The notes: generated by a model not told the origin, from the sequence alone. Shown: positions 3-60,492, counted from the first letter of the stretch. The stretch: 64,000 nt of DNA from Bacilli bacterium (GCA_017651565.1 JAGCCQ010000050.1:1918-65917); one strand, 5' to 3'. Made by a program: numbers and translations.

Positions 3-3000
3 GTTTTATCTATAATTGAGGCTAATGCAAGAATATGTCCTTTGGCTAATAAATTAAACCGAAGTGATTATTTAAACTATTGGTCTGATGGTGGAATAGA
101 TATAGGAAGAACAAGTGGAACCAAATCATTTAAAGAGGTTTATGCTTATTTTGATTTTGAGGAGAGCCTTTCTTCTTATGATAAGAGTATTACCGATGAA
201 GAAGTTAAGTTTATGGATAAGAACCTAGAGGAAGAAGAGGAAAAACTAGGTAAGTATGTAGCAGATGTTATAAAAGAACACTATGACGAGTTACTAGATA
301 TTATGCTAGATAATGAGTTTATAGACGAGGAAGAATTAGAAGAGTCAGAAAAAATTACTAATACAAACAATGATTTTTATTGTGAGTATTGTTGTAATAT
401 CTTCAGTGGAGAAATGAAGGAAGACGGAAGTATGCCTGATTGTCCTAGATGTGCTAATAGAAGAGCGTATGACACTGATATAAATATGACAGATGAAGAA
501 AGAAATAAACCAGCTAATGCCGATGTGCGTTTACTAAAAGATGGAGATATAGGTTTATTTGATGGAAATACTGTTCTAGACGAATTAGGTAGTGATTATG
601 AAGGAGTACTTGCTATGTATGACCTTCTTGGATATGACATAGAAGACGAGTTTATTTGGGAAGATATAGTTGATGACGCAGATAGTGAAAAACTTTATAT
701 AAAAAATGGAGACTTCTATTTAGATAAAGATGGAAAAACTGTTGTTTATAAAGGAAGAGACTCTGCAAACTTCCCTATTGTTTCTATTGTTAAGGGAAAT
801 AAGATAAAAGAAAGTATGTCATTAAAAGAAGAAGTAAATAATGAAATTGATAGTCACATTGAAAGTTTTAGAGGACCAGATCATAGTGGTTACTTTGATA
901 TGGACTTGTATGCTATAACTGTAAGAAGTGACTCAAAAGAAAGATACTTCTGGGCTTATTATAATTTCTCTGGTAAGCCAACAGTATATCCAGGTTATAA
1001 CCCAAGTCCAGAAGAAAAGAAGTTATTAAAACAAATGACAGGTGCAGAGGACTTTGAAGCAGGGTTAGATATTCTAGCAAATTATATAGATAAAAATCTA
1101 GATAGATTATTAAAAGAAAAAAATAAAAAAGGTATCTTTGATGTTTCATCTATGGAAGAATTAGACGAAGGATCCTTTGATGATTTAGACGCAGAGTATG
1201 GAAGTGTTGAAGAAGAAAACGGAAAGAAGTACTATGTTGCTGGTAGTACTCAACAAGGTTATTGTTATAAAAGTGTAGCAACATATAAGAATAGTCCAGA
1301 CGAAGTTTGCTATATTAGTGAGAGTGCCTTTGATGATAATAATGCAGTTGACGGAAAACTTCCACTAGACTATGTTGAAAAGAATAAAAATAAGTTAATT
1401 GAGGTTGGTAGTGTATCAACACACAATTCAATTCTTGAAGAAGTTAGAAGTGCTCTTGTTTTTGATAACTATAACTATACAGATAATTCTGGGAAAGTTA
1501 TTGAAGCAAAAGATTTTGATAATGAACTTATTGAGATGTTGGCTTTAGAAGCTTTTGAAATAGTTGATTGGCAAGGTACAGGATCATTTATTGGAGAACA
1601 AGATTATAAAGAAACTATTGAAGAGTATTATAGTCATAAACTTAATGAGAGTGTTACTGTTAAAAAACATAAAAGGTTAAGAGAGTCAGCATTACCAGAC
1701 GGAGTTGAAGTTACAGAAGATGGTTATCTTGTTGTAAAAGATTTTATTTATTACTTTATAGTTGGTGTTGCAAAAATACCAATGTATAGTGATGAAGACG
1801 ATAGTGAAGGTTGGGTTGAAACAGATTTTAATATACCTTTTAAAGTTAAAGACGAAAACTATGGAGTATTACCTTCTTTAGAAATGGCTGTTGAGTATGT
1901 TAAGTCCTATGTAGAGTCTGGAATACCAGGAACTTGTGGTGTTGTTGTTGAGTGTAAGACACCTGATTATGTAAGTGAAATGGACGCTGACGATAAGGAT
2001 AGAAATATTTACAATGGTTTTGCCGAGTGGGTAGATCCTTATGATATATATCATTATAAAGATAGTGACGGAAAAGTAGTTTATAGTGCTTATACAGACG
2101 AAAACAGTAACTTAATTGAAACAACGAAGGATACATCAACTGATAAAGTATCAATATCTTATAGTCCTAGTCCTGAAGTTTATGCAAATCTAATGGGGCT
2201 TAAATCTTTTGTAGAAGATAAGAGTAATAGAGAGTTATTCAAGTCAGATGGTATAGATGAAGAAGTAATTGATCTTGTTAATAATATTGTTAAGGGTTTA
2301 AAAAGTTTTAAGTTTAAATCTAAAAATGACTTTGTATCTTCTTTAGAACATATAAATAGTTTTATTGATGAAACAAAAGAATATTTTTACGATGGTATTG
2401 ATATAGATATAAAAGAGTATGTTAATTCTGTAATAGAGTCTGCTAAAAAAGGTATAAAGGAGTCTTTTAATACCAAGGCTTTGCGTAGGGTTTTAAAAGA
2501 AACAACAGATGAAGAAATAAATAAATTAAAAGTTGAACTTAAGAATAGAGCAGAAGATTTATATCACGATGGAGATATAAGTTTTGAATTAGATGAAAAA
2601 GATCTAGATCGTTTGGCTTATAAAATAAAACTTGGTGGTTTCTTTATATCTAATAATATATTTACTGACAATAATGATGAATATGAGTGGCAACAGATAA
2701 ATGATTTCTTGGACGATAGTATCCGTGATTATGCAGGGGAGAAAAGTATAAGAGATAAGTACAAAGATTTAAGTGACCTATCAACAACAAAAGACTTTAA
2801 ACAATTAGCAGATAGTTTAGACGATGAGACACTAAAAAATATTCAAAAAGTATTAGCACATTACATAGATTATACAGATAAAAATGATGACGGTGTTAAA
2901 GATATTATCGGAGAGTATACTACTCAATTTGGTAATGACTATGTAATTGATTGGTATGAAGGTTTAATGAGTACTAATGAGTTTATTAGTGAAATTAAAG

Positions 3001-4799
3001 ATAGTGGTTACACAGTTGAACCTAGGTTTAACGAATCAGTTAAGAACCTAAAAGAAGCAAGTAAGAAAACTGAACTTACAAAGTTTGATTGGAAAGATGG
3101 TTTAGACGGCTTTGATTACTATATGGATAAGGACAAATATATTTATGCTAAATCTAAAGATAGTGGAAGACTTTATTCTTGTACTGATGATGGAGATCCA
3201 GAAATAGAAATAGAAGATGACGAAAACTATATACTTAAGGAAGATAAAAAAACCGATCTTGAAAAAACTATTAGATCAAACACACAAAATAAAATAAAAA
3301 ATATTAGAGACATTAAAGATAATGAGTCTGGTACTGTTGTTTTAAACTTTGAATATCTTTATGATGACGAAGGTAATACAACAGTTAAGGGTTATGATAT
3401 AGTTTGTGACGATACAGGTGTTTATGATTTATTTGCAGACTATACATTATTAGGATCTAGTGGGGAAACTTTTGATTATAGATGGAATAAAAACGATGAT
3501 ACATTTGATTGTAGTGTTGTTGGAAAAGATTGTTGGTTTACTCTTACAGCAGAAGAGTTTAATATTGCTAATGAGGATATAAAAGAGTCTAGTCTTAATG
3601 AAAGTGCTTTTACTTCATTTAGATCTAGCCACCAGGACGAAGGTTTTTTAGGAAGACTTTGGTTTGAAATAGATGGTAAACCTTATACAATAGATTTATT
3701 TAAGATTGATGGAGAATATAGTCTAATTTATGGCATATATATTCCAGACGAATTACAAAAGTTTGTTGATGACTACGGTGGATACAAAAAGTTTTTACAA
3801 GACGCTATAGACTATGTTAAAGATAGTGGTTATTTAAAAGAGTCAGACATCTTTAAACCATTTGAAATTGAATCACTTGAAGGAAAAAGTGATTACGAAC
3901 TAGATGATTATGCTGATAAGTTACAACAAGAACTTAAGAGTGTTTATGAAAACGATGAGGCTAGTGCTTTAAGATATGACATATTAGACTTACTTAATAA
4001 AAAAGAAAAAGCAAATAATAGAGCCTCTGGAAATGGTTTAAGATATAATAAGAAACTAATTGAACTTATACATAAAGCTGAAGGTTATTTAGAAGAGTCA
4101 GTTGCTCCTAAAAAACCAAAGAAAAAGAAAAAGGGAGATAAAAAGGACGAGAAACGAGTTATTATGCAACAAGGAAATGTAACTTGTATAAAAGAAAGTA
4201 ATAATAAGTTTCTAGTATTTGAAAACGAAAACGATAATGAAAAAGAATATAAAGATCAAGATACTGCTATGGCTGATTTTTTACAAAGAGTTGGCGTTGA
4301 TCCTAATAGTGAACTAACAGAGAGTGTTAAAAGATATAATTTATTTGGAGATATAGTTGTATTAGATACTGATAATAAAAAACTTATAGTAAATGATAAA
4401 GAGTTTACATTTGATAAAATGGATGAGTTTGTTAAACAGGCTCGAGGCTCTAACAGACTATACAAGCCAATGGCACTATTACTTTACACAGATTATAAAA
4501 ATGGTAAGTTAAAAAATTGGGAAAGTGAAGCAATAAATGAAAGTGCTAAAGACTTTATACCAGAATTAATTGATAAGTATGTAGAAAACTATAATAAATC
4601 GCAGAAATGGATAAGAGGTAGGCGTAGACCAAGAGAAAAACAACCAGAAGATTTCGAGTGGCGATATATGGCTGGTAACATAGATGGTATGAAGGTTAGG
4701 GGCGAAGAAGAAATACAAATATTCGACAATAGTACGGGCGAATATTTAGGTCCACATAGTAAATATATTAATAGTGTGAGATCTGGCGATAGACACTAA
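3..4799 (+). CDS. Large acidic multi-module polyprotein, putative head internal (cargo) protein; 5' end lies outside the window
   Basis: The frame is open from base 3 (VLSIIEANARICP-LANK...), so the TTG at 42 is probably not the start. Roughly 20 L/I/F-x-E-[SAG] motifs (LEES, IKES, LNES, LRES, LKEAS, LTES, INES) separate small domains, including a CxxC...CxxC zinc ribbon. Confidence 0.75.
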   Translation, partial: VLSIIEANARICPLANKLNRSDYLNYWSDGGIDIGRTSGTKSFKEVYAYFDFEESLSSYDKSITDEEVKFMDKNLEEEEEKLGKYVADVIKEHYDELLDIMLDNEFIDEEELEESEKITNTNNDFYCEYCCNIFSGEMKEDGSMPDCPRCANRRAYDTDINMTDEERNKPANADVRLLKDGDIGLFDGNTVLDELGSDYEGVLAMYDLLGYDIEDEFIWEDIVDDADSEKLYIKNGDFYLDKDGKTVVYKGRDSANFPIVSIVKGNKIKESMSLKEEVNNEIDSHIESFRGPDHSGYFDMDLYAITVRSDSKERYFWAYYNFSGKPTVYPGYNPSPEEKKLLKQMTGAEDFEAGLDILANYIDKNLDRLLKEKNKKGIFDVSSMEELDEGSFDDLDAEYGSVEEENGKKYYVAGSTQQGYCYKSVATYKNSPDEVCYISESAFDDNNAVDGKLPLDYVEKNKNKLIEVGSVSTHNSILEEVRSALVFDNYNYTDNSGKVIEAKDFDNELIEMLALEAFEIVDWQGTGSFIGEQDYKETIEEYYSHKLNESVTVKKHKRLRESALPDGVEVTEDGYLVVKDFIYYFIVGVAKIPMYSDEDDSEGWVETDFNIPFKVKDENYGVLPSLEMAVEYVKSYVESGIPGTCGVVVECKTPDYVSEMDADDKDRNIYNGFAEWVDPYDIYHYKDSDGKVVYSAYTDENSNLIETTKDTSTDKVSISYSPSPEVYANLMGLKSFVEDKSNRELFKSDGIDEEVIDLVNNIVKGLKSFKFKSKNDFVSSLEHINSFIDETKEYFYDGIDIDIKEYVNSVIESAKKGIKESFNTKALRRVLKETTDEEINKLKVELKNRAEDLYHDGDISFELDEKDLDRLAYKIKLGGFFISNNIFTDNNDEYEWQQINDFLDDSIRDYAGEKSIRDKYKDLSDLSTTKDFKQLADSLDDETLKNIQKVLAHYIDYTDKNDDGVKDIIGEYTTQFGNDYVIDWYEGLMSTNEFISEIKDSGYTVEPRFNESVKNLKEASKKTELTKFDWKDGLDGFDYYMDKDKYIYAKSKDSGRLYSCTDDGDPEIEIEDDENYILKEDKKTDLEKTIRSNTQNKIKNIRDIKDNESGTVVLNFEYLYDDEGNTTVKGYDIVCDDTGVYDLFADYTLLGSSGETFDYRWNKNDDTFDCSVVGKDCWFTLTAEEFNIANEDIKESSLNESAFTSFRSSHQDEGFLGRLWFEIDGKPYTIDLFKIDGEYSLIYGIYIPDELQKFVDDYGGYKKFLQDAIDYVKDSGYLKESDIFKPFEIESLEGKSDYELDDYADKLQQELKSVYENDEASALRYDILDLLNKKEKANNRASGNGLRYNKKLIELIHKAEGYLEESVAPKKPKKKKKGDKKDEKRVIMQQGNVTCIKESNNKFLVFENENDNEKEYKDQDTAMADFLQRVGVDPNSELTESVKRYNLFGDIVVLDTDNKKLIVNDKEFTFDKMDEFVKQARGSNRLYKPMALLLYTDYKNGKLKNWESEAINESAKDFIPELIDKYVENYNKSQKWIRGRRRPREKQPEDFEWRYMAGNIDGMKVRGEEEIQIFDNSTGEYLGPHSKYINSVRSGDRH

Positions 4800-4816
4800 T
4801 AACAAATTATAAAGTA

Positions 4817-4837
4817 TCGTATAATAATTTAGAGGAG
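4817..4837 (+). promoter_or_regulatory. Phage promoter class A (TCGTATAATAATTTAG) abutting the RBS
   Basis: Near-identical to the motifs at 20900, 24339 and 25885; no canonical -35. Confidence 0.6.
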
Positions 4838-4842
4838 AGTTT

Positions 4843-5283
4843 ATGGAAAACAATTTAGAGCAAGGTAAAGAAATCGTTAATAACTCAAAGCCAGGGAAGA
4901 CTTATTCTCTGGCAGAGTTAAACGAGATAGTTAAAATGATAACAGAGAAGAAAGATGAGGTATTATCTTCTAGAGGGGAACTTAAGGTATTGGCAGCTCA
5001 CGAGTTGTCAGATACAAAGAAGATGACTAATAATTATAAAATAGCCGTTGAAAGAAACAATGCTACTATGGACTTAATTGTTGATATAAAAGATAACGCA
5101 TTAAGGTTTAAGTTAATCTCAAATAGAATAGATATAGCCACATCATTAGGTCAAGAACAGGTAAGACAGATTGAGTATCTTATTAAGGTGCTTAATGAAG
5201 TACTTGGTATCTTGAGAGAAGAAGAAAAGAAGTTAGACAGAGTTATAAGATTTTATGAAAGAAATTATAATTCCTATGTTTAA
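4843..5283 (+). CDS. Helical/coiled-coil hypothetical protein (possibly a UvsY-like recombination mediator)
   Basis: 146 aa, GAGGAG RBS; shares its promoter motif with recA, the sbcC C-half and sbcD. The function is a guess. Confidence 0.45.
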   Translation: MENNLEQGKEIVNNSKPGKTYSLAELNEIVKMITEKKDEVLSSRGELKVLAAHELSDTKKMTNNYKIAVERNNATMDLIVDIKDNALRFKLISNRIDIATSLGQEQVRQIEYLIKVLNEVLGILREEEKKLDRVIRFYERNYNSYV

Positions 5284-5298
5284 TTTAGGGAGGTAACA

Positions 5299-5826
5299 AT
5301 GAACTTATACGAAAGTATTAGGAACAATTTTGATAAGTTAAACGAGGCTAAAGATAGTCAAGTAACTAATTATATAGTTAACCGTGGAGATTATACTTTA
5401 ACTGTGACACAGAACCTTGTTGGTGGAAATGCTGTTTTAAAAGATAAAAGTGGAAAAGTTGTTGGTAAGTTAAAGTTTACAGAGAAGGACGAACCCTTCT
5501 ATAGTGATACAGTTGTAGATACTAATGACTTAACACACTTAATAAGTAAACTTAAACCAAATATTGGTATTTATAGTTTATACCGAGAAGGATATGAAGA
5601 TGAAGATCTTTTAGATCCAGATAGTAATAGCGATACAGAACTTTGGGTAAACGGCAAGATCTATTGGCAAGGATCTGCTAAAGATGTAGATGTAAATCTA
5701 TTAATGGATGTTGCAGATCAAGCTTCAGAAGAAGATGGAAAGATTTACGATACAGACGAAGTCGAGATAGTTTATACAGGCGAAGGTGGAGAACCTGACG
5801 CTACTCTACCTTGGGCTCGTTATTAA
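5299..5826 (+). CDS. Putative internal head protein with capsid-targeting-like leader
   Basis: N-terminus MNLYESIRNNFDKLNE|A; acidic body; GGAGG RBS. Confidence 0.65.
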   Translation: MNLYESIRNNFDKLNEAKDSQVTNYIVNRGDYTLTVTQNLVGGNAVLKDKSGKVVGKLKFTEKDEPFYSDTVVDTNDLTHLISKLKPNIGIYSLYREGYEDEDLLDPDSNSDTELWVNGKIYWQGSAKDVDVNLLMDVADQASEEDGKIYDTDEVEIVYTGEGGEPDATLPWARY

Positions 5827-5855
5827 GTTTAAAATATATAGTAAGGAGATATAGT

Positions 5856-5990
5856 ATGGCAAAAAGTAAAAGTAGTAGAGGTAAAGATTTTTACACTAGA
5901 CAGTACGCTAAAACAGAAGCGAACTTGAAAAGAAAAGGAAAAACTAATAAAAAAAGAAATCACGCTGGATACAAAGCCAATGTGAAATAA
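5856..5990 (+). CDS. Small basic protein (44 aa), not in the ORF track
   Basis: AAGGAG RBS, ATG 5856, MAKSKSSRGKDFYTRQYAKTEANLKRKGKTNKKRNHAGYKANVK*; fills the intergenic gap. Confidence 0.65.
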   Translation: MAKSKSSRGKDFYTRQYAKTEANLKRKGKTNKKRNHAGYKANVK

Positions 5991-6003
5991 AGGAGGTATT
6001 ACT

Positions 6004-6291
6004 ATGAGAAATAGTGATGTTGAAGTTGTATCGACAAAAGATTTAAGTGGTCTTATGATCGGTTATCAAGCAGGGGTAAATAGAATAGTTATTGTTACAA
6101 AAGACGGAGAGAAGTTAAGAAGAAACTTGGCTGTTAAAGGTTTAAATATCTTAAGAGCCCCTGGAGAGTCTGGATGTAACTTTAGTTATTATAATTATGA
6201 TGACGGACAACTTCATATAATAAATATGAAATATGTTGATAAGATACAATTATATAGAGATAAAGAATTAGTAGGAGAGATTGTAGAATAA
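6004..6291 (+). CDS. Hypothetical protein
   Basis: 95 aa, AGGAGG RBS. Confidence 0.7.
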   Translation: MRNSDVEVVSTKDLSGLMIGYQAGVNRIVIVTKDGEKLRRNLAVKGLNILRAPGESGCNFSYYNYDDGQLHIINMKYVDKIQLYRDKELVGEIVE

Positions 6292-6303
6292 GGAGGTAGT
6301 GTT

Positions 6304-9072
6304 ATGAATATTTATGAAAGTGTTAGAACTAATCTAAATGAAGTTAAAAAAATAAAAAACGATAAAAGCCTATTACAAAAAGTTTTAGATACTGCTGAAA
6401 ACCTTGGTTGGACTTATAGTGAAGTTAATTATGCTGGAGACGAAAAAGGTTATGAGTTTTATCAATACAGCCCAGCAGGAGAAGATTTTAGTTTTTCTTC
6501 TTGTTATGGTAGCGAAAGTTTATCAGATGATGAAAAAGGAAGAAACTTAATCAAGGATATAGTTGATTATGCTAATGACTTTGATACAAACGAACACGCT
6601 GGTATGTTATACAATGCAGGACAAGAAGGTTTTGAAGGCGTACCAGATTTAGATATACTTGTTGATGACGCAAAAGATATTGATAATATGTTACAAGATC
6701 TAGCAAATGAACTTGAAAAGATTAATGATGTTATGAACGAAAGTTACACATATTTTTGGCAAGATGATATTGAAGAAGTTGATTATTCTGAAGATAATGA
6801 CGAGATTTGGTATGCTGTTGCTAGTAATATGTGTGAAAAGGAACCAGAAGAATATGGAGACGATCCAACAGAAGTAATGAGCGATATAATTTCTATTTGG
6901 AAGATAGAGAAGAGAAGCCGTTTATATAAATACCTATTAAAGTGGTATGGATCTGAAGAAAAACTTTTAGATAATGTTAGAGATGTTTATGAAACAGATA
7001 ATGCTATTTATTTCGTAACAGGTTGTGGTTATTCAATCTTTTCTGCAGACTTACTTGGTGGTACTGCTGATGGTAATGCAGGAAGAGAGTTTGACGCTAT
7101 GGTTAGACAGGAAGAAGGACTTAATGAAGGAGTGCTTGAACCAAAATACTCATCAAGAAAGAGTTTCTATGGTAAAGCTGGTACTGATAGCACAGCTGAA
7201 GGTAATGTTTTAACAAGTTATGGAACACCTATAATGAGAATTAAAGATGGAAATGTTGAAATGTTATGTGGCGAGTGGGCTTTAACAAGTACAACATTAA
7301 GACATATAAGAGAGTTTATGCAACAAAACGGTCTTGAACCTTTATCTAAAAGACAATTAATTGATCTAATTAATAAAAAAGGTTTAAGAGAAAGTAAAAA
7401 AGATAAAGAGTCAGATAAACTTTTTAAGGCTTTAGTTAATTCAGATAAGTTTATTAAACAAGTTGAAAAAGAAAAAGGTTTAAAAAACTTAACTTCAAAA
7501 TCAGGAGAAGTAATTGATAGAGCAGAGGAGTATATTCAAGGCGACTATGAAGGTGCTCTTAAGTTTGCTGGTTTAAAGGAAAGTAAAGAAGATAAAGAAT
7601 ATAAGAAACAAGTTGAAGATGAAGGTAAGATGGCTGACGCTATACACCAAGAGTTTAAGAAATCTAAAAATAAAACTAGAAAAGAATTAGAAAAGATTTG
7701 TAAGAAGCATAATGTTGGTGTTGAAGATTATCTATACGCTGACGGTTATCAAGGAAACTTTGACGAATTAGTAAATGAATTAAAAGAGTCAGACAGTTTT
7801 AACTATAATGGTTACACATTTAGACCTGTAGGTAACTTTAAATCAAATAAAAACTTTGCTAGTTTTATAAATAGAGATATAGATAGTAATATTAATAATA
7901 ATTTTAAATATGACGATTTCTATAAAGTAGCACCAGAGGTTGATCTATTTACAGTTGATGAGTTAGATAATGCTTTGGTAATGCCTGGATCAAATGGTTT
8001 CTTTAGATATAGAGGAACTGAAGACGATTATATTCCAATGGAAAACCTTAAGAGTAAAGCAGAGTTAAACACTGTTGATAACCTAGGGTATATTGGAGAC
8101 GAATACGATAAAGAGATAGTTGATGATATACTTGGTAGTGAAGATTATGGAAGTATAGCACATAAAGTTGGTTGGGCTCTTAATAGGTATCAATTATATA
8201 ATTTAGCAACACTTTATATTAATGACGAAAGCACAAGAGAAAAAATTGAAGAATTACTTACTGATATTAATTATCATAGTGAGTGCTCTGACCTAATGGA
8301 TAACCCAGAAGCATTTAGAGATAGTCTTATGACAAGTTTATCTGAAAGTGCTACTGTGGTAGGTAAAAAGATATTAAAAGAAGCACCAACAGAAGAACAA
8401 GAAGACGAAGAGTTTGTACTTGCTGATGGTGGTATTAGTGATAATAGTCCAGAAAAGATGACAGCAGAAGAGACAGGCGAGGAAATGTCAGACACAGAAT
8501 ATGAGGAAGAAGCAGAGGATGACGCTAAAGATATAGTTAAAGACGATATTGAAGAACCGTTCTATGCTACCGTTCCTGAATATGATGAGTTAAGAGAAGT
8601 ACTTGTTGATCTAGACTATAGATTATTACTAATAAATGACGATATAGTTTGTATTGGAAGACTTAATGGACCAGATATAGAAATACTTACATCTAACCAC
8701 GAAAGTAGTGACGATATAAATAAATCAGAGTCAAATGATAAATCAGACGAAATAGAAGAAAGAGCTGAAGAGAACGAAGAAGATAGTTATGAATACTTAT
8801 GGATCAAAGCACCAAAGGGCTCTTTAGAAGATTTCTTAAAACAAGTTAATGTATTATATCTATCTCCTGAAATGAGTGAAGAAGATAAAGAACAATACGC
8901 TGGTCTTGAGGCTAATCACGAAAGCGTAATGAATTATCTAATGAACGAATTACCAGAGGATAAGAGAAAAGATAAAAAGGAAGAAGAAACTGAAGAAGAA
9001 GTGGAAGAGGAAACAGTAGAAGAACCTACTGAAGAAGTATCTACTGAAACTGAAGTTGAGGAGGAAAAATAG
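6304..9072 (+). CDS. Multi-module polyprotein, putative head internal/core protein
   Basis: Leader MNIYESVRTNLNE; internal MNES, LNEG, LRES, LKES, LSES, LKEA. Modules include a YSPAGEDF...GVP domain and an SFYGKA...TTLRHIREF domain; Glu-rich tail. Confidence 0.7.
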   Translation: MNIYESVRTNLNEVKKIKNDKSLLQKVLDTAENLGWTYSEVNYAGDEKGYEFYQYSPAGEDFSFSSCYGSESLSDDEKGRNLIKDIVDYANDFDTNEHAGMLYNAGQEGFEGVPDLDILVDDAKDIDNMLQDLANELEKINDVMNESYTYFWQDDIEEVDYSEDNDEIWYAVASNMCEKEPEEYGDDPTEVMSDIISIWKIEKRSRLYKYLLKWYGSEEKLLDNVRDVYETDNAIYFVTGCGYSIFSADLLGGTADGNAGREFDAMVRQEEGLNEGVLEPKYSSRKSFYGKAGTDSTAEGNVLTSYGTPIMRIKDGNVEMLCGEWALTSTTLRHIREFMQQNGLEPLSKRQLIDLINKKGLRESKKDKESDKLFKALVNSDKFIKQVEKEKGLKNLTSKSGEVIDRAEEYIQGDYEGALKFAGLKESKEDKEYKKQVEDEGKMADAIHQEFKKSKNKTRKELEKICKKHNVGVEDYLYADGYQGNFDELVNELKESDSFNYNGYTFRPVGNFKSNKNFASFINRDIDSNINNNFKYDDFYKVAPEVDLFTVDELDNALVMPGSNGFFRYRGTEDDYIPMENLKSKAELNTVDNLGYIGDEYDKEIVDDILGSEDYGSIAHKVGWALNRYQLYNLATLYINDESTREKIEELLTDINYHSECSDLMDNPEAFRDSLMTSLSESATVVGKKILKEAPTEEQEDEEFVLADGGISDNSPEKMTAEETGEEMSDTEYEEEAEDDAKDIVKDDIEEPFYATVPEYDELREVLVDLDYRLLLINDDIVCIGRLNGPDIEILTSNHESSDDINKSESNDKSDEIEERAEENEEDSYEYLWIKAPKGSLEDFLKQVNVLYLSPEMSEEDKEQYAGLEANHESVMNYLMNELPEDKRKDKKEEETEEEVEEETVEEPTEEVSTETEVEEEK

Positions 9073-9073
9073 T

Positions 9074-24364: not shown

Positions 24365-24613
24365 ATGGATCAAGATTTAGTAGTAAGAGTACAAGAGTTA
24401 ATGTCAAAGGTAGATAACTTAAAAGTATCTAAAATTGAGACAGAAACTAAAATTAAAGCACTAGAAGAAAGTTTAGAAGAAAACTTAAACAAAGCAAAAG
24501 AGTTAGGGTATGACTCTATTGAAAAACTAGTTGAAGCACAAGAACAATTAGAAGAAAGTATTAAAAAAGAGTGTAGCGAAGTTGAGAACCTATTAAAAGA
24601 AGCAGGTGTTTAA
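24365..24613 (+). CDS. Small coiled-coil protein
   Basis: 82 aa, heptad-rich, directly upstream of the SbcC C-half. Confidence 0.7.
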   Translation: MDQDLVVRVQELMSKVDNLKVSKIETETKIKALEESLEENLNKAKELGYDSIEKLVEAQEQLEESIKKECSEVENLLKEAGV

Positions 24614-47763: not shown

Positions 47764-47772
47764 GGAGGAAAT

Positions 47773-48315: not shown

Positions 48316-48577
48316 TGTAAGTACAAAAATACTTGAAGGAATTGAAAACGCAACTGAAATCACTTCTAATATTCAAGGAGAGTGTCCTAAATGTGGAGGA
48401 ACATCACTAGACTATGGCGATGTTGTCTTTGAAGATTTTATTGACGATGGTGCTGTATATTTCCCTTGGACTTGTCCTGATTGTGGTGCTGAAGGTAGAG
48501 AGTATTACTATATATATTTTGCAACACATAAAGTAAAAGATAAGGAAGGCTACTTCGATGAAGTAGAAAAGTGGTAA
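48305..48577 (+). CDS. Zinc-ribbon protein with leader
   Basis: MKNNVSTKILE|G; CPKCG...WTCPDCG. Confidence 0.65.
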   Translation: MKNNVSTKILEGIENATEITSNIQGECPKCGGTSLDYGDVVFEDFIDDGAVYFPWTCPDCGAEGREYYYIYFATHKVKDKEGYFDEVEKW

Positions 48578-48579
48578 GT

Positions 48580-49083
48580 ATGAGATTAAGAGAAGGAATT
48601 GATATAACAAAATCTATGGTAAAAAGTCTTAATGAAGAAGACGAAGTTGCAACTGATAATCAATATATGGAAAAACTTAAAAGTCTTATGGATCAACTTT
48701 CAGAAGAAGGAACTGCTTTAGAGAAAGATGTTTTAGACGATCAGTATGACGAAGTCGATGATTATGAAACACCACAAGATTTTTTAGAGCACCTTTGCGA
48801 TTTACATATTGCAGACGGTAGCGTAACATCTATGATTTATTATGATGATACTCTTGCTTTTTTAGAAAAACACGAAGACGAAATTAATGAATTATTAAGT
48901 GAGTTGTTAAAAGAAGTTGGAGGATCTTTCAAAGATTTATTTGGAGATAATTATGACGATACTGATCCAATGAATATAGGAACTTCAAATAAAAACTTAT
49001 TTGCCTGGTTTGGTTATGAAGAAATAGCCAGAAATCTTGCTTATAAGTTAAACGAACTTGGCGACTTTAACGCAAATATATAG
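48580..49083 (+). CDS. Acidic Ocr-like (DNA-mimic-like) protein with leader
   Basis: Leader ends SLNE|E; very acidic; DGSVTSMIYYDDT...NLFAWFGYEEIA is reminiscent of T7 Ocr YYADI...IYEQL. Confidence 0.5.
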   Translation: MRLREGIDITKSMVKSLNEEDEVATDNQYMEKLKSLMDQLSEEGTALEKDVLDDQYDEVDDYETPQDFLEHLCDLHIADGSVTSMIYYDDTLAFLEKHEDEINELLSELLKEVGGSFKDLFGDNYDDTDPMNIGTSNKNLFAWFGYEEIARNLAYKLNELGDFNANI

Positions 49084-52862: not shown

Positions 52863-52881
52863 TAAGAGGAGATTTTATAGT

Positions 52882-53928
52882 ATGGTAGATGTTATTATTC
52901 CTGCATATAATAGTCAGGATACAATTATTAGAACATTAAGCAGTATTGCTATGCAATTAGATAGGGAAAACATTATGGTTACGATTGTTAACGATGGTGG
53001 AGAACCTTATACAGATATAATAAAAATATTTGAACCTATTTTAAAAATAAAAGAAATAGGTTATAAAGAAAACAAAGGACCAGGTTATGCAAGACAGTAT
53101 GGTATTGATAATACTAATAATGATTACATAATCTTTATAGACGCAGACGATACATTTTTAGAGGCTTGTTCTGTCTGGCTTCTAACAAATGCGATAAAAG
53201 AGTCAAATGCGAAATTAGTTATTAGTCCGTTCGTCCAAATAGGTAAGCACTGCGAACAAAGTGTTATCCCTGCTAACCTAACTTGGATATTCGGACATAT
53301 TTATCAAAGAAACTTTTTAACAAAACATAATATAAGATTTACACCAACAAGATCAAATGAAGATGTTGGGTTTAATACAATGGTATATAATATAGCATTT
53401 CATTATTTTGGAGATAATGGTGGTAAACTTTTAACCACTCCAACTTATGAGTGGCATTATAACGAAGCCTCTATTACAAGAAGAGGTAAAGATGAGTATG
53501 AGTATGGTATCTGTACTCCAGGTTATATTTATAACTTACATAATGCTTTCGATGTTTGTATTAGAGAAGGTGTTACATTAAAAGAAATAGCAAAAGCTGT
53601 TCTTGAGTCATTATTTAGTTGTTTTGTTTACTATAATGTTGCTCTTGCTAAAGAAGTACCAGCACAAACATTATGGTCTATAGAAGAATTAAGCCGTAAG
53701 TTTTACTATGATTATTATAATCAAGTACAAGACTTTATATCAAAAGACGAGTATAAAGAGATCTATACTCAAGCGTATAATAGTAAAGGAGCACACTTAC
53801 AAGGAATAATACCTAAAATGACTTTAGAAGGGTTTATTGAATTAATGTTTAGTAAAGAAGTTAATGAAAAAGATTACGCACAATTTGAAAAAGAAGTACA
53901 AAGTGTAGCAGAAGAAGAAAGAAATTAA
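52882..53928 (+). CDS. Glycosyltransferase family 2
   Basis: VDVIIPAYNS, IVNDG, GPGYARQYG, FIDADD, NEDVGFN. Confidence 0.9.
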   Translation: MVDVIIPAYNSQDTIIRTLSSIAMQLDRENIMVTIVNDGGEPYTDIIKIFEPILKIKEIGYKENKGPGYARQYGIDNTNNDYIIFIDADDTFLEACSVWLLTNAIKESNAKLVISPFVQIGKHCEQSVIPANLTWIFGHIYQRNFLTKHNIRFTPTRSNEDVGFNTMVYNIAFHYFGDNGGKLLTTPTYEWHYNEASITRRGKDEYEYGICTPGYIYNLHNAFDVCIREGVTLKEIAKAVLESLFSCFVYYNVALAKEVPAQTLWSIEELSRKFYYDYYNQVQDFISKDEYKEIYTQAYNSKGAHLQGIIPKMTLEGFIELMFSKEVNEKDYAQFEKEVQSVAEEERN

Positions 53929-53949: not shown

Positions 53950-54492
53950 ATGAGATTAAACAACGAGATACTTTCAAGTCTTAAAAAAGAAAAATTAAGA
54001 GAGTCAATGTGGAAAAAATCTTTTGGTAAGAAACAAAAGTTTATTGACGATAAGCCACAACAACAAATACAAGAGGACTTAATACCTCTTTTAAATGCTT
54101 ATGGTATTAAAATGATAGCAAAGCCATATATTAATAGACCACAACAACAAACATATATTGGGTTTGATAATAATAACAATAGAATACATCTAACTTTCTC
54201 TATAAGTCCTAGAGTTGTTGACGATAACTTTGGTAATATTGCTGTTAGTATTCGTTATAAAGGTAAGGATGAAGATTTAGGAACTATTGATATAAGTACA
54301 CCACAGGGACTTGACGAAACTTTCTCTTTAATAACAAGTGCTCTAGAATATTTAGGACTTGATATTGAGGGTAATGGTAAGGAAGAGGAAAAGCCTAAAG
54401 AAGAGAACGATCCAGATGTAGACGAATTAATTAAGTTTAAGAGTAGTTTAAAAGAAAGTGAACTTAAAGAATTGGAGGTAGTCTATGAGTAG
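53950..54492 (+). CDS. Putative internal head protein with leader
   Basis: MRLNNEILSSLKKEKLRE|S; C-terminal LKESELKE. Confidence 0.6.
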   Translation: MRLNNEILSSLKKEKLRESMWKKSFGKKQKFIDDKPQQQIQEDLIPLLNAYGIKMIAKPYINRPQQQTYIGFDNNNNRIHLTFSISPRVVDDNFGNIAVSIRYKGKDEDLGTIDISTPQGLDETFSLITSALEYLGLDIEGNGKEEEKPKEENDPDVDELIKFKSSLKESELKELEVVYE

Positions 54493-56023
54493 AAATATTT
54501 ATTATAAGATATTAGAAGCTAATAGTGCTATTGCCAACAAAGTTGCTGGAGAAGTTAGAACTAAATATAAAAATAAGGAGACAGGGGAGTTAACAAAGTC
54601 TATAGAAGATGTTAGAAGAGAATACCCCTATTATGATATAGAAGATGTTGATCTTGGTTATAATATGGCGAAAGAGGAAACAGAAAAGGAACAAGAACAA
54701 AAACAAAAGGAAACACCAAGTAAGGACGAGTTAACACAAGAACAAATAGATACAGGAAATAAGATAGTAGAAATCTTGGCTAGTTATGGAATTAAAGCAG
54801 AGTTTATCACTGCTAAAAAAGGTCCTAATGTAACTCAATATTCTTTTAGTCTTGCAGGTGGAACAAGAATAAATGATGTTAAAAGACTAGATAAAGAAAT
54901 TGCTATGGGACTTGCTGTTAAGAGTGTATCTGTAGAACAAGTAGAAGGAACTTCATATATAGGAATACAAGTACCAAACGAGCAAATAAATAATGTATCT
55001 TTAGACGAGGTTTTAAATAACACTAAAAAAGAAGGTTTATCTTTTGGGTTAGGTGTTAACTTAAAAGGAGAGCCTGTTAGTGCTGATATTCTAAAACTTC
55101 AGCATATACTTATTGGTGGATCAACAGGATCAGGTAAATCTTCTTGTATAAACTCTATAATATGCTCTTTAATTAAAGAATATAGTCCAGAGCAAGTTAA
55201 GTTAGTTTTAATAGATCCTAAAAGGGTTGAATTGGCTCCATATTCAAACATTTCTCACTTATTAATGCCAATTATAACTGACTCACAAAAAGCGTCAGAA
55301 ACGCTTAAAAACTTAATTTCAGAGATGGATAAAAGGTATAGTACTTTTGAAAAAGTTGGAGTTAAGAATATTGAAAGTTATAATAACCTAGTGACAAAGG
55401 CAAAAGAGTCTGGTAAGAATATTAAACTAATGCCTTATATAGTTGTTGTTATAGATGAGTTGGCTGACTTAATGCAAACAACAGGAAAAGAAGTTGAGTC
55501 ATCAATTCAAAGACTTACACAACTAGCAAGAGCCTCTGGTATCCACTTAATAGTAGCAACGCAAAGACCTTCAGTAGATGTTGTTACGGGTGTTATAAAA
55601 TCTAATTTAGTAAGTAGAATAGCTTTTACAACATCATCTGGTGTTGATAGTAAAACAATTATAGATAAACAAGGTGCAGAAAAACTTTTAGGTAAAGGCG
55701 ATATGCTTTATAGACCTGTTGGATCAAGTAATGCTTCTAGATTACAAGGTGTTTATGTACCTGATGATGAGGTTGAGGATATTGTAAGAGAAGTTAAAAA
55801 TAAATACCCAACACAGAATAGTGGTACTGAAGAGACAGTACAAAAAACTGATATAAAAGATAATATTGATAATTATATAGATAGTGCCGTACAGTTGGCA
55901 AATAAGTATGGAAAAGTATCCCCTGCTATATTACAAATAGGGTTACATATACCTTATAGTAAAGCAGTGGCTATTATAAATAAAATGATAGAAAAAGGAA
56001 TAATTAAAAATAAGGAGGAATAG
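54485..56023 (+). CDS. ftsK: FtsK/SpoIIIE-family DNA translocase (soluble, with alpha, beta and gamma domains)
   Basis: GPNVTQY, HILIGGSTGSGKS, IDPKRVEL, VVIDELADLM, ATQRPSVDVVTG, GAEKLLGKGDML; C-terminal winged helix; no TM segments. Confidence 0.92.
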   Translation: MSRNIYYKILEANSAIANKVAGEVRTKYKNKETGELTKSIEDVRREYPYYDIEDVDLGYNMAKEETEKEQEQKQKETPSKDELTQEQIDTGNKIVEILASYGIKAEFITAKKGPNVTQYSFSLAGGTRINDVKRLDKEIAMGLAVKSVSVEQVEGTSYIGIQVPNEQINNVSLDEVLNNTKKEGLSFGLGVNLKGEPVSADILKLQHILIGGSTGSGKSSCINSIICSLIKEYSPEQVKLVLIDPKRVELAPYSNISHLLMPIITDSQKASETLKNLISEMDKRYSTFEKVGVKNIESYNNLVTKAKESGKNIKLMPYIVVVIDELADLMQTTGKEVESSIQRLTQLARASGIHLIVATQRPSVDVVTGVIKSNLVSRIAFTTSSGVDSKTIIDKQGAEKLLGKGDMLYRPVGSSNASRLQGVYVPDDEVEDIVREVKNKYPTQNSGTEETVQKTDIKDNIDNYIDSAVQLANKYGKVSPAILQIGLHIPYSKAVAIINKMIEKGIIKNKEE

Positions 56024-56024: not shown

Positions 56025-56558
56025 ATGAAACTTAATGAAAGTATTTTACATAATTTAAAGGAAGGTAGCCCTGTAACAGTTATATGTGGTGGGACAAAGT
56101 TTGAGTTTGATAGTTTAGATAAAGCAAAGTCTTTCTGGTTAAACTGTTACTATAATAGTGAAGGATCAGAGCAAAGTAGATATGAAGATATTTTAATGGA
56201 TCTAAATGACGGAGAAACTTTTGTTACTGACGGATCAACTCCAAAATCTGGTGTTGACCTATACAATAAATACAAGGGTGTTAAGGACTCTGGAAAGTAT
56301 AAAGTAATGGATAGAGAATATACTTTAGGTGGAGATAGTTGGAAAACAGCAGAAGATTATATCACTTTCTTTAATGGATCTGATCTTGCTAGAAGTAAAT
56401 CTACTTGGAAAGAGTTTAGAGACGAAATGGCTAAAGGTGGCTATGACAAGGAGTCTAAATATTTACAAAATAAATTAGAAAAAGATTTTGGTGTTAAACT
56501 TGAGGGAGCAACACCAAGAAGACATAAAGGCGTTAGAAGAAAAAGAGGAGGGTGTTAG
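56025..56558 (+). CDS. Putative internal head protein with leader
   Basis: MKLNESILHNLKE|G; a VTVICGG...SEGSEQSRY module. Confidence 0.65.
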   Translation: MKLNESILHNLKEGSPVTVICGGTKFEFDSLDKAKSFWLNCYYNSEGSEQSRYEDILMDLNDGETFVTDGSTPKSGVDLYNKYKGVKDSGKYKVMDREYTLGGDSWKTAEDYITFFNGSDLARSKSTWKEFRDEMAKGGYDKESKYLQNKLEKDFGVKLEGATPRRHKGVRRKRGGC

Positions 56559-56559
56559 T

Positions 56560-57552: not shown

Positions 57553-57561
57553 GAGGAAGTT

Positions 57562-57948
57562 ATGAAGTTAGGACAATCAATTTTAAAGAACTTAAACGAG
57601 ATCGAAGTACACACTGTTGATAACGATCCACTTTGGGCTAAAGCTGTTGCTGAAGTTAACGCACAGTGGGAAAAAGAAAAACCAGGGGTAGCAGAAGATA
57701 TTAAAGCAGAATATAAGGAATATTTAAAAACTTTAAAAGAGGCTGGATACACTAAAGAACAGATAGATAAAATGCCAGAGACAAAAGCCTATAAAGACGC
57801 TATAAAAGATCCAGACGATATATGGTGTGAGTGTGGCTATTACTCTGACGATGAAACATATTACAAAGAATACGGAGAGTTTTACCTAGGAGTTGAGTCC
57901 GAAGGATACCTTTGTAAAAAATGTATGAAGTTTACTCAAATTGGGTAA
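57562..57948 (+). CDS. Putative internal head protein with leader and C-terminal zinc ribbon
   Basis: MKLGQSILKNLNE|I; WCECG...LCKKC..TQIG. Confidence 0.65.
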   Translation: MKLGQSILKNLNEIEVHTVDNDPLWAKAVAEVNAQWEKEKPGVAEDIKAEYKEYLKTLKEAGYTKEQIDKMPETKAYKDAIKDPDDIWCECGYYSDDETYYKEYGEFYLGVESEGYLCKKCMKFTQIG

Positions 57949-57960
57949 GGGGAGGTAAGT

Positions 57961-60492
57961 ATGAAAAGTACATTAATAGAAAGTACAAAATCAAAGTTTC
58001 AAGTACTAGCACAAAAACCAGCAAATGTCTTAAAAAGAATACAGGGCGTACTTTCAGACTTTGGTTCTAATAGAAATGGTAGAATATATCCAAGAGAGTT
58101 ATGGGAAAATGTAATTAATTCAGATTATGTAAAAGAAATGATTGACTCTCACGGACTTGTTGGAGAATTAGACCACCCAGAAGAAAGACTTGAAATATCA
58201 CTTCAAAATGTTTCGCACGTTATTAATGATATGTGGATCGAAGGCGATAAAGTTATGGGTGTTATAGATATATTACCAACACCAAACGGAAAGATTGTAA
58301 ATGAATTATTAGACTATGGTACTGATATTGGTATTAGTTCTCGTGGTGCTGGTTCTGTAGGTGCTGGAAATATAGTTGATCCAGATTATCAATTTATAAC
58401 TTTTGATTTTGTAGCAAGACCTAGTTGTGAGGCAGCTAGACTTAACACAATTCTTGAGGGTGTTAAAGTTGATCTAGAGAACAACAGTGACGATAAAGTA
58501 AATAAAATACTAGAAAGTTATAAGTCAGAACTAAAAGAAAGTTCTGATGGTGCTGATATAACAGATGAAGAGAAAGAGTTTTATGGCTATGGAAATAGAT
58601 ATAGAACTTTAGAGCAAATGATTAAGTTATTTAAACAATATTCTTATGAGTTTGAAACTAAAGCACACAGGGAGAAAAATGAGTTCTATAGAGGACTTGC
58701 TGAAGGTTATAGTAGGGCTTCCTTTGAGTTAGAACATAATCTAGATCCAGAGAAACATAAATTAAACGAGGCTATGTCAGATCAAGAAGTATATAAAGTA
58801 GTGCTTAATTGGTATAAAGATCAAATTGAGGCTGGTAAAATGACACTTAATCAGTGTTACGAGTTACTATCAGATAAAGCAAAGGTTAGTTTAAATAAAT
58901 TAGTTGATAAATCTAAAATACAAGAAAGTATAAGAGCAACATTAAAAAAACCTTTAAGAGAAGCCGTTGAAACAGTTTATTATACTCTTGCTATACCAAC
59001 TGAAAAGGGGGAGCGTAACTTATTAGTTAAGGCTCCAAAGAAGTATAATATTGATAGTAAAGAAGATTATCTAAAACTTGTTGATGATTTATATAAAAAA
59101 GGTTTAATTAATTTAGACGAAAAAGAAGATTTTGAGTTTGGTAATTTCAAATGTATTGAAAGAGACGATTCAGCAGAGTTTTTCATAAGCCACGGAATTA
59201 AACTATTAGACTTAACATCTAAAGGTAATAAGTTAAAGGAAGACTATGAAGACTATGCAAACAAAGGAGAATACTCTGATAAAGTATTTGTTGCTAAAGC
59301 AAATGACAACGAAAGAAAAAACTTAAAAAAAGAACTTGCTAAAAGATTTAAAGTAGGTACAAGAGTTTATGTTTATGGAGAAGGTCCTGGAAGTGTAAAA
59401 CTATATGATGAGAAAAATGGAGAGTTTGGATCTGTAAAAGTTTTATTAGATAGGGGAGAGTTGATCCCTGTTAGTCTTGGTGTAGACCGTATTGATTTGA
59501 TAAAAGATGTTGAATCTTTCGTTTGTTATAACTGTGGAAAGTATTTTGTAGGTAAGTTAAAACAAAATGGTACTATGCCTAACTGTCCTAATTGCTATGA
59601 GACAGTATATAAAGACGATGATAGAAGAGATAGTGACGGACACGCTAATAAGGACGTGCATATCCATAAACTAGGAGAGTCATATAAAATGATAGGTAAA
59701 CCAATATATGAAGCATATAACCCAAAAGAAGATCAAAAATATAAAAAGATGATCCAGGATGAGTTTGGCTATTGTATAGATGAGATAGATGTAGAAGGAC
59801 CTGGAGAAATCTGGATATACCTTAAAGATAAATATATATCATCAGAGATGGAAGGACACACAATTCACGAGCAAACTTTTAAGGCTTGTTATGAAATGCT
59901 TAAAAATGGAATCGAAGAATCGTTAAGTGAATCTGCTGACGGTGTACCTTCATCACTAGAACTAAATACAGGAGTACTTCCAATAATAGATACAGGTATT
60001 TATGGGCGTGAAGAAGATATATGGCGTTATATAGAAGATGACGAAGGAAGTTATGAGGATGGTCCAGAAACTATGGAAGATCTAGATAAGGCTATGATAG
60101 ACATCGGTGGACCTATGCTTCAAGAGATGATACAGGAAGTTTTACCGAGTGCTACTGTAGAAGTAACAGGGGTACATCATCCTACTTTCTATAACTATTC
60201 AACTGATGAGTTAGAGTTTAATTTAGGATATGATCCAAATGAACTTAATGAACTTATTAATAGAGCCGTTAGTGAAAAAGAGTTTGAAGAATACTTAAAA
60301 TCATTTAGTAGTTACAGTGGTTTTGTTTCATTTATGGCTGATAATCTAGAGGACTTTGATACAGAAGACTATTGGAAAAAAGCAGTACAAGTTTTATGTT
60401 ACTACCTAGGGGACAAAAAAGATTATCACGAAGCATTAAACTATGAAGCAACAACCGATTTCTGGGATGATGTTATTCAATCTTTTAGATAA
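57961..60492 (+). CDS. Prohead maturation protease (T4 gp21-like) with a long C-terminal module array
   Basis: NRNGRIYP, GELDHP, VSHVI, GISSRGAGS and FDFVARPS in the first ~165 aa; then about 650 aa divided by LKES, LNEA, IQES, LREA, LKED, LGES, IEESLSES. Confidence 0.9.
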   Translation: MKSTLIESTKSKFQVLAQKPANVLKRIQGVLSDFGSNRNGRIYPRELWENVINSDYVKEMIDSHGLVGELDHPEERLEISLQNVSHVINDMWIEGDKVMGVIDILPTPNGKIVNELLDYGTDIGISSRGAGSVGAGNIVDPDYQFITFDFVARPSCEAARLNTILEGVKVDLENNSDDKVNKILESYKSELKESSDGADITDEEKEFYGYGNRYRTLEQMIKLFKQYSYEFETKAHREKNEFYRGLAEGYSRASFELEHNLDPEKHKLNEAMSDQEVYKVVLNWYKDQIEAGKMTLNQCYELLSDKAKVSLNKLVDKSKIQESIRATLKKPLREAVETVYYTLAIPTEKGERNLLVKAPKKYNIDSKEDYLKLVDDLYKKGLINLDEKEDFEFGNFKCIERDDSAEFFISHGIKLLDLTSKGNKLKEDYEDYANKGEYSDKVFVAKANDNERKNLKKELAKRFKVGTRVYVYGEGPGSVKLYDEKNGEFGSVKVLLDRGELIPVSLGVDRIDLIKDVESFVCYNCGKYFVGKLKQNGTMPNCPNCYETVYKDDDRRDSDGHANKDVHIHKLGESYKMIGKPIYEAYNPKEDQKYKKMIQDEFGYCIDEIDVEGPGEIWIYLKDKYISSEMEGHTIHEQTFKACYEMLKNGIEESLSESADGVPSSLELNTGVLPIIDTGIYGREEDIWRYIEDDEGSYEDGPETMEDLDKAMIDIGGPMLQEMIQEVLPSATVEVTGVHHPTFYNYSTDELEFNLGYDPNELNELINRAVSEKEFEEYLKSFSSYSGFVSFMADNLEDFDTEDYWKKAVQVLCYYLGDKKDYHEALNYEATTDFWDDVIQSFR

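Follow-up and report, generated by a model that had tools for sequence, protein, structure and literature searches.

Leader-bearing giant proteins with prohead-protease-type junctions in an uncultured T4-type myovirus: candidate polyprotein cargo of the phage head

The capsid-targeted proteins of phage T4, its multiply cut head core, the processed ejection proteins of phiKZ-like phages and the analogy between polyvalent proteins and polyproteins are already in print. In T4 the prohead protease has the specificity L/I-X-E, the capsid-targeting sequence (CTS) is 10 residues long, and gp23 and gp24 lose 65 and 10 N-terminal residues, respectively (PMC9026906, PMC9958956). The ejection proteins of phiKZ-like phages have multiple sites within their propeptides and pass into the host (PMC9026906, PMC10052503, PMC5694885). 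The authors who described the polyvalent proteins (Iyer et al. 2017) propose that these accompany the DNA and that peptidases release their units, drawing the polyprotein analogy themselves (PMC5512222; also PMC7824862), and attribute the release to embedded MPTase or C-terminal assemblin-like peptidase domains (PMC5512222). Here, we set against these systems a 64,000-nucleotide stretch of DNA (GCA_017651565.1, JAGCCQ010000050.1:1918-65917; hereafter the window, with coordinates counted from its first letter), in which five giant open reading frames (ORFs) and a prohead-protease ORF are punctuated by an L/I-x-E-[S/A/G] motif, and in which a related leader opens a whole set of ORFs. The window (C42:1918-65917, from an 80-contig bin of 1.58 Mb) covers about half of the genome, a circle of ~116 kb, of an uncultured myovirus with a T4-type head module; since the first bases of contig C42 reappear at position 116,030 of its 116,171 bases, the element is circularly closed.

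Counted as [LI].E[SAG], with the expectation for each ORF taken from 300 whole-protein shuffles, the motif was found 70 times in the six pooled ORFs (6,691 residues), as compared with 18.1±4.2 after global shuffling. This roughly four-fold excess upholds the punctuation that the initial annotation (made from the sequence alone) had ascribed to the giant ORFs and the protease ORF. All six lie on the plus strand: ORF A (3-4799; 16 sites in this window part vs 3.8 expected), ORF B (6304-9072, 922 residues; 7 vs 3.2), ORF C (9074-11815, 913 residues; 8 vs 2.7), ORF D (42191-47185, 1664 residues; 15 vs 4.1), ORF E (49093-51333, 746 residues; 12 vs 1.6, several of them paired around basic spacers of 9-13 residues) and the protease ORF (57961-60492; 12 vs 2.2). 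The true start of ORF A lies 288 nucleotides before the window (position -288, C42:1629), which gives it 1695 residues and ~18 predicted fragments. Shuffling within 15-residue blocks left the expectation at 18.1±4.0, and the largest of 100 such local shuffles reached 28; as the excess is unchanged under this treatment, it cannot be put down to local composition. Five control motifs with matching composition but another order or residue ([SAG]E.[LI], E.[LI][SAG], [LI]E.[SAG], [LI].[SAG]E and [VFM].E[SAG]) were flat (11-22 matches for 14-18 expected), the D-for-E variant [LI].D[SAG] gave 22 matches for 16.3 expected, and [LI].E ahead of any residue but S, A or G fell slightly short of expectation (69 vs 83.6). 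Enrichment over a composition-matched background, as anticipated at the outset, was thus obtained with both global and local shuffles. Applied to T4 as a check, the same statistic singled out the scaffold protein gp22, an established multi-cut substrate (8 vs 1.4 expected), and placed gp17, gp18, uvsW, gp48 and gp20 at expectation.

Outside these ORFs the motif is far closer to background. Nineteen large tail and replication ORFs situated beyond the window (9,841 residues) show no excess (22 vs 17.3). The 12-39 kb block of the window shows a mild one (27 vs 17.4±4.4), and the absence of punctuation initially claimed for the replication block holds only in part. Four of the 27 sites in this block (0.5 expected) belong to an 82-residue ORF with a coiled-coil-like sequence (24365-24613), where they may be a by-product of the heptad pattern rather than protease substrates. 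Among the head-cluster genes that lack the leader, the counts are 0 for DUF5662 and 2 for a family-2 glycosyltransferase (together at 51414-53928, inside the portal-to-protease cluster and without motif excess), 0 for an FtsK-like ATPase and 1 for ORF 56560; the last had been listed among the punctuated ORFs and, with 0.9 sites expected and no leader, drops out of the set.

A feature missed by the initial annotation ties the punctuated ORFs together: a related leader of 10-25 residues opens 14 ORFs. It has a basic start followed by a hydrophobic heptad pattern, its consensus is approximately M-(K/R/N)-x-L-x-E-S-I-L-x-N-L-K-E, and in most cases its last residues are [LI]-x-E, before S, G or A. 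As read from the site list and the N-termini, 12 of the 14 have [LI]xE[SAG] inside their first 27 residues, as early as residues 6-9 in ORF E and 9-12 in ORF 48305, the exceptions being ORF 48580 (core ending in L-N-E-E) and ORF 57562 (ending in L-N-E-I). Five of the 14 leader ORFs are the giants A to E (746-1695 residues), in which modules are concatenated and in which the leader of ORF C is of the same type as that of ORF A. The other nine, also on the plus strand, encode single-module proteins, namely those at 5299-5826 (175 residues), 39288-40022 (244 residues, just upstream of the portal gene), 47197-47763, 47773-48315, 48305-48577 (zinc-ribbon-like), 48580-49083 (DUF7222), 53950-54492 (180 residues, with a homologue in G001, a 123.5 kb viral contig whose portal is 72% identical), 56025-56558 (177 residues, the best match to the leader profile, score 25.0) and 57562-57948 (128 residues, directly upstream of the protease gene). 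Taken together, the leader ORFs comprise 7,469 residues (22.4 kb, 19% of the genome), which with ~1.9 kb of protease tail replaces the ~26 kb of the first estimate.

Past residue 30, leader-bearing ORFs hold 0.81 sites per 100 residues and 61 other ORFs hold 0.37 (p=1.6e-4). The internal sites are unevenly shared, with 6-16 in each of the five large leader ORFs and 0-1 in the nine small ones; what had been described as punctuation of about ten smaller genes lies mainly at the end of their leaders. A leader-core profile scored at least 15 at 14 places in C42 (35,455 residues) and at 4 in the other 79 contigs of the bin (463,574 residues), and the leader pattern is rare elsewhere and essentially confined to N-termini. 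Within the giant ORFs we found no internal copy at the level of a true leader (two weak ones occur in ORF E, scoring 13.2 and 16.0), which argues that these ORFs are not simple end-to-end fusions of leader-bearing genes. Pfam and PHROG scans matched none of the scanned ORFs to an internal-protein family. By analogy with T4, the leader most likely acts like a CTS, that is, as a loading signal into the prohead core; its conservation and gene position back such a role, and from them we infer the targeting itself.

The protease ORF matches Pfam PF03420 (Peptidase_S77) over residues 36-137 (61.4 bits, cut-off 27), PHROG 207 ('head maturation protease', 7e-47) and the T4 gp21 structure chain 5jbl_A (5.6e-8). 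Its S77 part spans residues ~8-166 and is followed by a tail of ~630 residues that carries 8 sites and a zinc-ribbon-like motif. Residues H72 and S126/S127 align with two Ala of the crystallised T4 chain, which may be mutated catalytic positions, and the N-terminus contains L-I-E|S at residues 5-8, T4 gp21 likewise having L-I-E near its N-terminus (PMC9026906). By its family matches the ORF encodes a prohead protease of S77/gp21 type; that it would cut after Glu in L/I-x-E is suggested indirectly, by the invariant Glu at the capsid propeptide site and by the motif excess in the neighbouring proteins. The neighbouring structural genes carry the motif at equivalent places: in the gp23-type major capsid protein (60684-62039, plus strand; Pfam Gp23 3.1e-52) the predicted maturation site (nucleotides 60870-60881) is L63-T64-E65|A66, identical in residues and numbering to that read from the record of T4 gp23, as had been pointed out from the start, and T4 gp24 has L-R-E|S after residue 10. 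Among cultured phages, the most similar capsid proteins (those of Listeria phage LIS04, of the Bacillus phages SP-15 and HSE3 and of a Streptococcus phage) share 36-39% identity, the SP-15/LIS04 group being the nearest cultured relatives. Residue E65 does not vary among the window, G001, LIS04 and SP-15. The T4 gp20-type portal (40234-42180, plus strand; Pfam Portal_T4 2.5e-40) has L-N-E|G at residues 12-15, and L-N-E|[GA] is retained at the portal N-terminus in four phages (the window, G001, L015 and L016). 

Of 67 sites, 42 have S at P1', 16 have G and 9 have A, and K is enriched at P4-P6 (at P5 in 24 of 67) and at P2 (24 of 67). The flanks contain fewer hydrophobic residues (5.64 per 20, as against 6.58 at average positions; p=2e-5). 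For the zinc-binding domains of the early description, a search turned up only four zinc-ribbon-like motifs of the form C-x2-C...C-x2-C. The DNA that encodes the sites is varied (61 distinct 12-mers among 72 sites), on which ground we rejected the idea that they mark recombination junctions; the codons used there are roughly those of the ORFs at large, TTA and GAG being somewhat favoured, and the motif is kept at the protein and not at the DNA level. This variety bears on an alternative in which the proteins, packaged or not, are never cut and act at full length in the manner of polyvalent proteins, the motif being a structural or junctional feature. The motif is, after all, short, the shuffling of modules could favour a common junction sequence, and the virion RNA polymerase of phage N4 is packaged uncut (PMC5512222). 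Nevertheless, we consider it improbable, since not only is the junction DNA diverse, but L/I at P3, E at P1 and a small residue at P1' match the T4 protease logo and the T4 gp23 and gp24 sites, the same motif recurs at the capsid propeptide, the portal N-terminus and the protease N-terminus, and tandem sites around short basic spacers would be structurally hard to explain.

The sites coincide with the borders of modules. Counting the ends of BLAST homology blocks that fall short of the protein end and lie within 5 residues of a site, we found such ends in 18 of 56 clusters for the five giant ORFs of the window, as compared with 5.1 expected. Domain envelopes from Pfam and PHROG abut sites as well: the PHROG 4264 match in ORF B (272-357) lies between the predicted cuts after 275 and 363, and in ORF D the envelope 572-675 lies between the sites at 566 and 695, the envelope 1033-1091 before 1092 and the LPD16 match (486-550) before 555. 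The coincidence of domain borders with motifs, initially put forward as a prediction, is therefore sustained by both kinds of evidence. Individual modules can be followed from one protein to another: ORF A 1288-1378 matches P0002 155-242 (and also P0003), ending 5 and 1 residues from sites, ORF B 424-493 matches P0004 1472-1537 (3 and 2 residues), and ORF E 184-269 matches P0006 1600-1684 (1 and 1 residues), with the ends in the matched proteins likewise 1-5 residues from a site, save for the start of the P0006 match (14 residues). Since the same modules are matched between different giant ORFs, we conclude that modules move between them. The mature part of the small leader ORF at 5299 is homologous to internal giant-ORF modules of other phages (P0004 1214-1326 and P0006 1503-1601, in each case from 3 residues past a cut motif), and residues 102-185 of ORF 47197 match internal modules of P0007, P0011, P0005 and P0010; as far as homology can tell, the same modules exist both as stand-alone leader genes and as parts of giant ORFs. 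Ahead of the C-terminal domain of ORF E, the junction has the form [LI].E[SAG] in 24 of the 32 aligned rows (a few of which may be alignment noise) and the broader form [LIVMF].E[SAGT] in 29, at positions that range in the homologues from residue 6 to 655.

A 65-residue module of ORF D (PHROG 30135) also occurs as a separate 70-residue gene adjoining a single-stranded DNA-binding protein (SSB)-like ORF in an unrelated 18 kb viral contig (L014 9998-10210). The comparison suggests that the cargo modules derive from ordinary small phage genes.

If every site were cut, the predicted products would be 50 pieces of more than 21 residues (median 108, range 22-310; 6 to 16 modules per giant ORF) and 21 short ones (mean 12 residues, 13 of them net basic), tandem sites often flanking a basic spacer of 7-13 residues. 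The size of these pieces matters for a second alternative, by which the giant ORFs would be expendable core or scaffold proteins comparable to T4 gp22, gp67 and gp68, which are loaded, cut and expelled around packaging, with nothing delivered. The core proteins of T4 are indeed cut to fragments that mostly leave the head (PMC9026906), gp22 shares the motif excess (see above), the cluster occupies the place of genes 67/68 in T4, the acidity of the modules is marked, and the coiled-coil-like tail of the SP-15 protease (11 sites in the ORF vs 2.0 expected) looks like a scaffold-like substrate within the lineage. Conversely, gp22 is much denser in sites (16 L/I-x-E in 269 residues; ~3 [LI]xE[SAG] per 100) than the giant ORFs (0.8-1.6 per 100 residues), which would leave pieces of domain size; SP-15, LIS04 and HSE3 make related heads without these genes; cargo content is highly mosaic between phages with 72% identical portals; the modules resemble stand-alone small proteins, one of them adjoining the SSB-like ORF; and 19% of the genome would be a large outlay for a discarded core. 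On balance we hold this alternative to be unlikely.

The SP-15 ORF in question (SP15_031, L002 18237-19943, 568 residues, annotated as hypothetical) and its counterpart in LIS04 (L001 18245-19924) have an S77-type N-terminus and a coiled-coil-like tail rich in L-x-E|[SA]; in SP15_031 nine of the 11 sites lie in the last ~320 residues (~3 per 100 there). Both look like protease-scaffold fusions, and the SP-15 tail would fit one that is degraded at the L-x-E motif.

Leaders, motifs and gene order are conserved in the clade, while the cargo is exchanged. G001 has the same leaders in front of a largely different set of shorter cargo genes, and its homology to the window comes in separate blocks, four of which (from ORF C) match a single 863-residue G001 ORF with 10 sites (2.8 expected). 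Ten homologues of ORF D were found (972-1841 residues, on contigs of up to 127 kb), with modules in differing order and 102 sites for 36.3 expected ([MV].E[SAG] is raised too, 41 vs 22.3). Nine of the ten have a D-type leader and P0009 has one of the M-x-L-Y-E type; across the 11 D-family proteins, leader residues M1, L4, E6, N7 and L13 and the junction P1 Glu E1092 are invariant. A HMMER search with ORF E retrieved 33 other representatives, each from a separate 50%-identity cluster, which together hold 173 sites (41.0 expected; reverse control 52 vs 40.9), and about 20 of the 33 have a similar leader (assessed by eye, unscored). The order portal, leader genes, protease, capsid recurs in G001, L015 and L016. 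In the latter two it runs in full from the portal through small leader genes, a D-family giant, more small leader genes (those of 47197-49083 again following the D-family gene) and DUF5662 to the FtsK-like gene, and the place of DUF5662 is preserved in G001 and L015. The T4 gene order 20-67-68-21-22-23 occupies the same relative places. In SP-15, LIS04 and HSE3, nothing but ribonucleotide reductase genes and one or two small ORFs separates portal and protease; consequently, the cargo genes are unnecessary for building a head of this kind.

In a further alternative, the proteins are processed in the cytoplasm by the phage protease or a host enzyme and act in the producing infection, for instance as an economical means of expressing many small proteins, without ever being encapsidated. 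The leader genes of cluster 1 (3-11815), which have no flanking head genes, would suit it. However, cluster 2 is embedded, in four phages, between the genes for portal and protease, single-module leader genes need no processing for their expression, and T4 gp21 is active only after prohead assembly (PMC9958956), and we therefore regard it as very improbable.

Searches for relatives covered several collections: across 50,697 phage records there was no DNA-level match to a cultured phage and no tblastn match to the C-terminal domain of ORF E, and a capsid-protein scan of genome contigs returned none; a viral contig collection yielded one close relative and one small contig, and metagenome contigs yielded five loci.

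We reason that the leader-bearing proteins are internal head proteins, targeted by their leaders and cut by the gp21-type protease into ~50 mostly acidic modules, and we give this cargo reading a probability of roughly 0.58; the most economical of the readings, it extends the known T4 scheme. The leader would bring each protein into the prohead core and would then be removed by the prohead protease; inside the prohead, the gp21-type serine protease encoded beside the capsid gene would cut the [LI]-x-E|[S/G/A] junctions, and the products would be ~50 mostly acidic modules (protease tail included), the leaders and short basic peptides. Once packaged and cleaved, the modules would probably be retained in the head and exit with the DNA at infection, and they may have host-directed or anti-defence roles. 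A more specific version, which we put forward tentatively and consider possible though doubtful, is that any small phage protein could become cargo either through acquisition of the leader or through splicing behind an [LI]xE|S junction, so that ~50 ready-made proteins per genome would be released and would reach the host along with the DNA, as a rapidly evolving set for takeover or counter-defence, and the basic spacers would remain on the DNA and condense it. If true, this would amount to a genuine polyprotein strategy in a double-stranded DNA phage, with the maturation protease acting in trans.

A number of observations weigh against the cargo reading. Close pairs of sites are only modestly in excess (16 vs 9.2±2.7), and the motif also occurs inside homology blocks, where it may stay uncut (L-E-E|G at residue 254 of ORF C; residues 160, 319 and 360 of the capsid protein). 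The leader profile was trained on what it finds, which makes the count of 14 places against 4 circular for its 13 training members; similarly, over all 31 compared proteins block ends fall near a site in 79 of 337 cases (27.9 expected), and breakpoints among related proteins are not independent in this set. In the ORF D homologues the reverse-order control is itself somewhat raised (92 vs 58.6). Among the 50 predicted modules, 42 are net negative (mean charge -12.7). The internal proteins that T4 retains in its head are basic, and acidic modules are in keeping with displacement by the DNA as it enters. Pfam, PHROG and structure searches assigned no function to any module, only families of unknown function and LPD16, and the SP-15 genome paper contains no protease or mass-spectrometry terms.

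Structure prediction gives weak support. The AlphaFold2 model of ORF E (35-row alignment) has a mean predicted local distance difference test (pLDDT) score of 58.1 and is confident only at residues ~550-640 (the C-terminal domain). Segments with pLDDT <50 make up 40% of the protein and hold 7 of its 11 internal sites (p about 0.10); 9 of the 11 lie within 2 residues of such segments (p 0.02). The model of ORF D 939-1262 is likewise of low confidence (mean pLDDT 60.5); in it, the invariant I-T-E|G junction falls in a coil between two helices, at a dip in confidence, and the other two junctions are of low confidence. The expectation that sites would map to linkers in AlphaFold models is thus weakly supported. 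With both models, Foldseek returned no match against the PDB at E<=0.001; the BFVD gave two matches at this threshold (uncharacterised phage proteins of 82-85 residues), a structure search of the Atlas gave unnamed viral proteins of 77-82 residues, and its feature search gave no usable match. The structural neighbours of the modules are stand-alone phage proteins of 65-85 residues.

Compared with the T4 proteins that carry a CTS (IPI-III and Alt) and are processed by gp21, the proteins described here likewise begin with a short propeptide that has L/I-x-E at its end, and likewise are encoded with the head genes; in both phages an S77 protease gene adjoins the gene for a gp23-type capsid protein with L-T-E|A at residues 63-66. 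The T4 cargo consists of single small proteins cut at the ends, unlike the five proteins of 746-1695 residues with 7-19 internal sites at module borders found here, and the acidity of the modules and the 19% of the genome taken up by the set are further differences; the likeness is one of leader build. With the T4 core proteins gp22, gp67 and gp68 the giant ORFs share multiple L/I-x-E sites, the motif excess and a place between portal and capsid genes, but the denser sites of gp22 leave pieces of tens of residues instead of domain-sized ones, and no window ORF matched a scaffold family in Pfam or PHROG. The ejection and inner-body proteins of phiKZ, 201phi2-1 and SPN3US (cut by gp175 or gp245) resemble our set in being internal to the head and processed after Glu by a diverged gp21 homologue; however, their sites are S/A-x-E or A-x-E, their propeptides have 111-254 residues and one mature piece per protein is described, whereas here P3 is L/I, the leaders have 10-25 residues and many modules are predicted.

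With the polyvalent proteins the giant ORFs have in common their size, their mosaic and multi-domain build and their virion-gene context. Several modules had been thought to resemble polyvalent domains, and of these one LPD16 match in ORF D stands (28.4 bits, cut-off 27), a domain given as exclusive to the polyvalent proteins of conjugative elements (PMC5512222); in the leader ORFs and the protease tail, Pfam revealed no other hallmark domain (MPTase, ART, DdrB-ParB, PBECR or other LPD) at E<=0.01. Nor did Pfam find an embedded peptidase domain in ORFs A to E, the protease ORF alone joining an N-terminal S77 domain to a modular tail. The excerpted parts of PMC5512222 describe neither a junction motif for a trans-acting prohead protease nor a shared leader. 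In the open-access literature searched, we found no description of a shared leader combined with a trans-acting prohead-protease motif at every module junction of giant proteins, of tandem sites around basic spacers, or of a module that occurs now as a leader gene on its own, now as a segment of a polyprotein. If the cargo reading is true, motif and leader would predict, from sequence alone, which proteins ride in the capsids of this clade and where they are cut, and the ~50 small proteins per genome would become candidates for functions in the first minute of infection. It would furthermore join T4-type capsid targeting and processing with the polyvalent proteins (fields so far kept apart), and the leader and junction could offer a natural way to pack several foreign proteins into a capsid from a single gene.

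Several genes and features around the cargo clusters deserve mention. All 45 window ORFs of at least 150 residues lie on the plus strand, and the G+C content is 0.29-0.35 across the window. C42 is a complete phage genome that was binned together with a 1.58 Mb bacterial genome, and the capsid gene was present in none of 30 genomes related to the host bin. The Pfam and PHROG scans gave a weak TerL match among the window ORFs, and the tail genes come after the head genes, beyond the window end. A candidate promoter resembling the late promoter of T4 (TATAAATA) was rejected, as its 26 matches (19.4±4.6 expected) amount to no signal. Directly after the first cargo cluster, a Cpn60/GroEL-type chaperonin is encoded at 12910-14349 (Pfam 6.2e-34); the cultured relatives have GroES-type genes instead.

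The FtsK/SpoIIIE-like ATPase of the head cluster (54485-56023, plus strand; FtsK_SpoIIIE 8.7e-58) has alpha, motor and gamma domains and no internal site in 482 residues. Its N-terminus may be a degenerate leader ending in I-L-E|A, and a leader-like N-terminus ([LI]xE|A or similar) is seen in three phages (the window, L015 16425-17993, and G001 on the reverse strand at 6149-7681). It is an uncertain member of the leader set, and might be a translocase of DNA that enters the head along with the cargo.

The ORF that follows the gp13-like neck gene (63637-64000, continuing to C42:66354; 266 residues) has 3 sites in its first 80 residues. Counterparts with N-terminal sites exist in LIS04 (L001 22741-23766; 6 vs 1.5 expected) and SP-15 (L002 23899-24915; 3 vs 1.0), and the product is, by this comparison, probably a conserved processed head protein, one that can be tested in a cultured phage.

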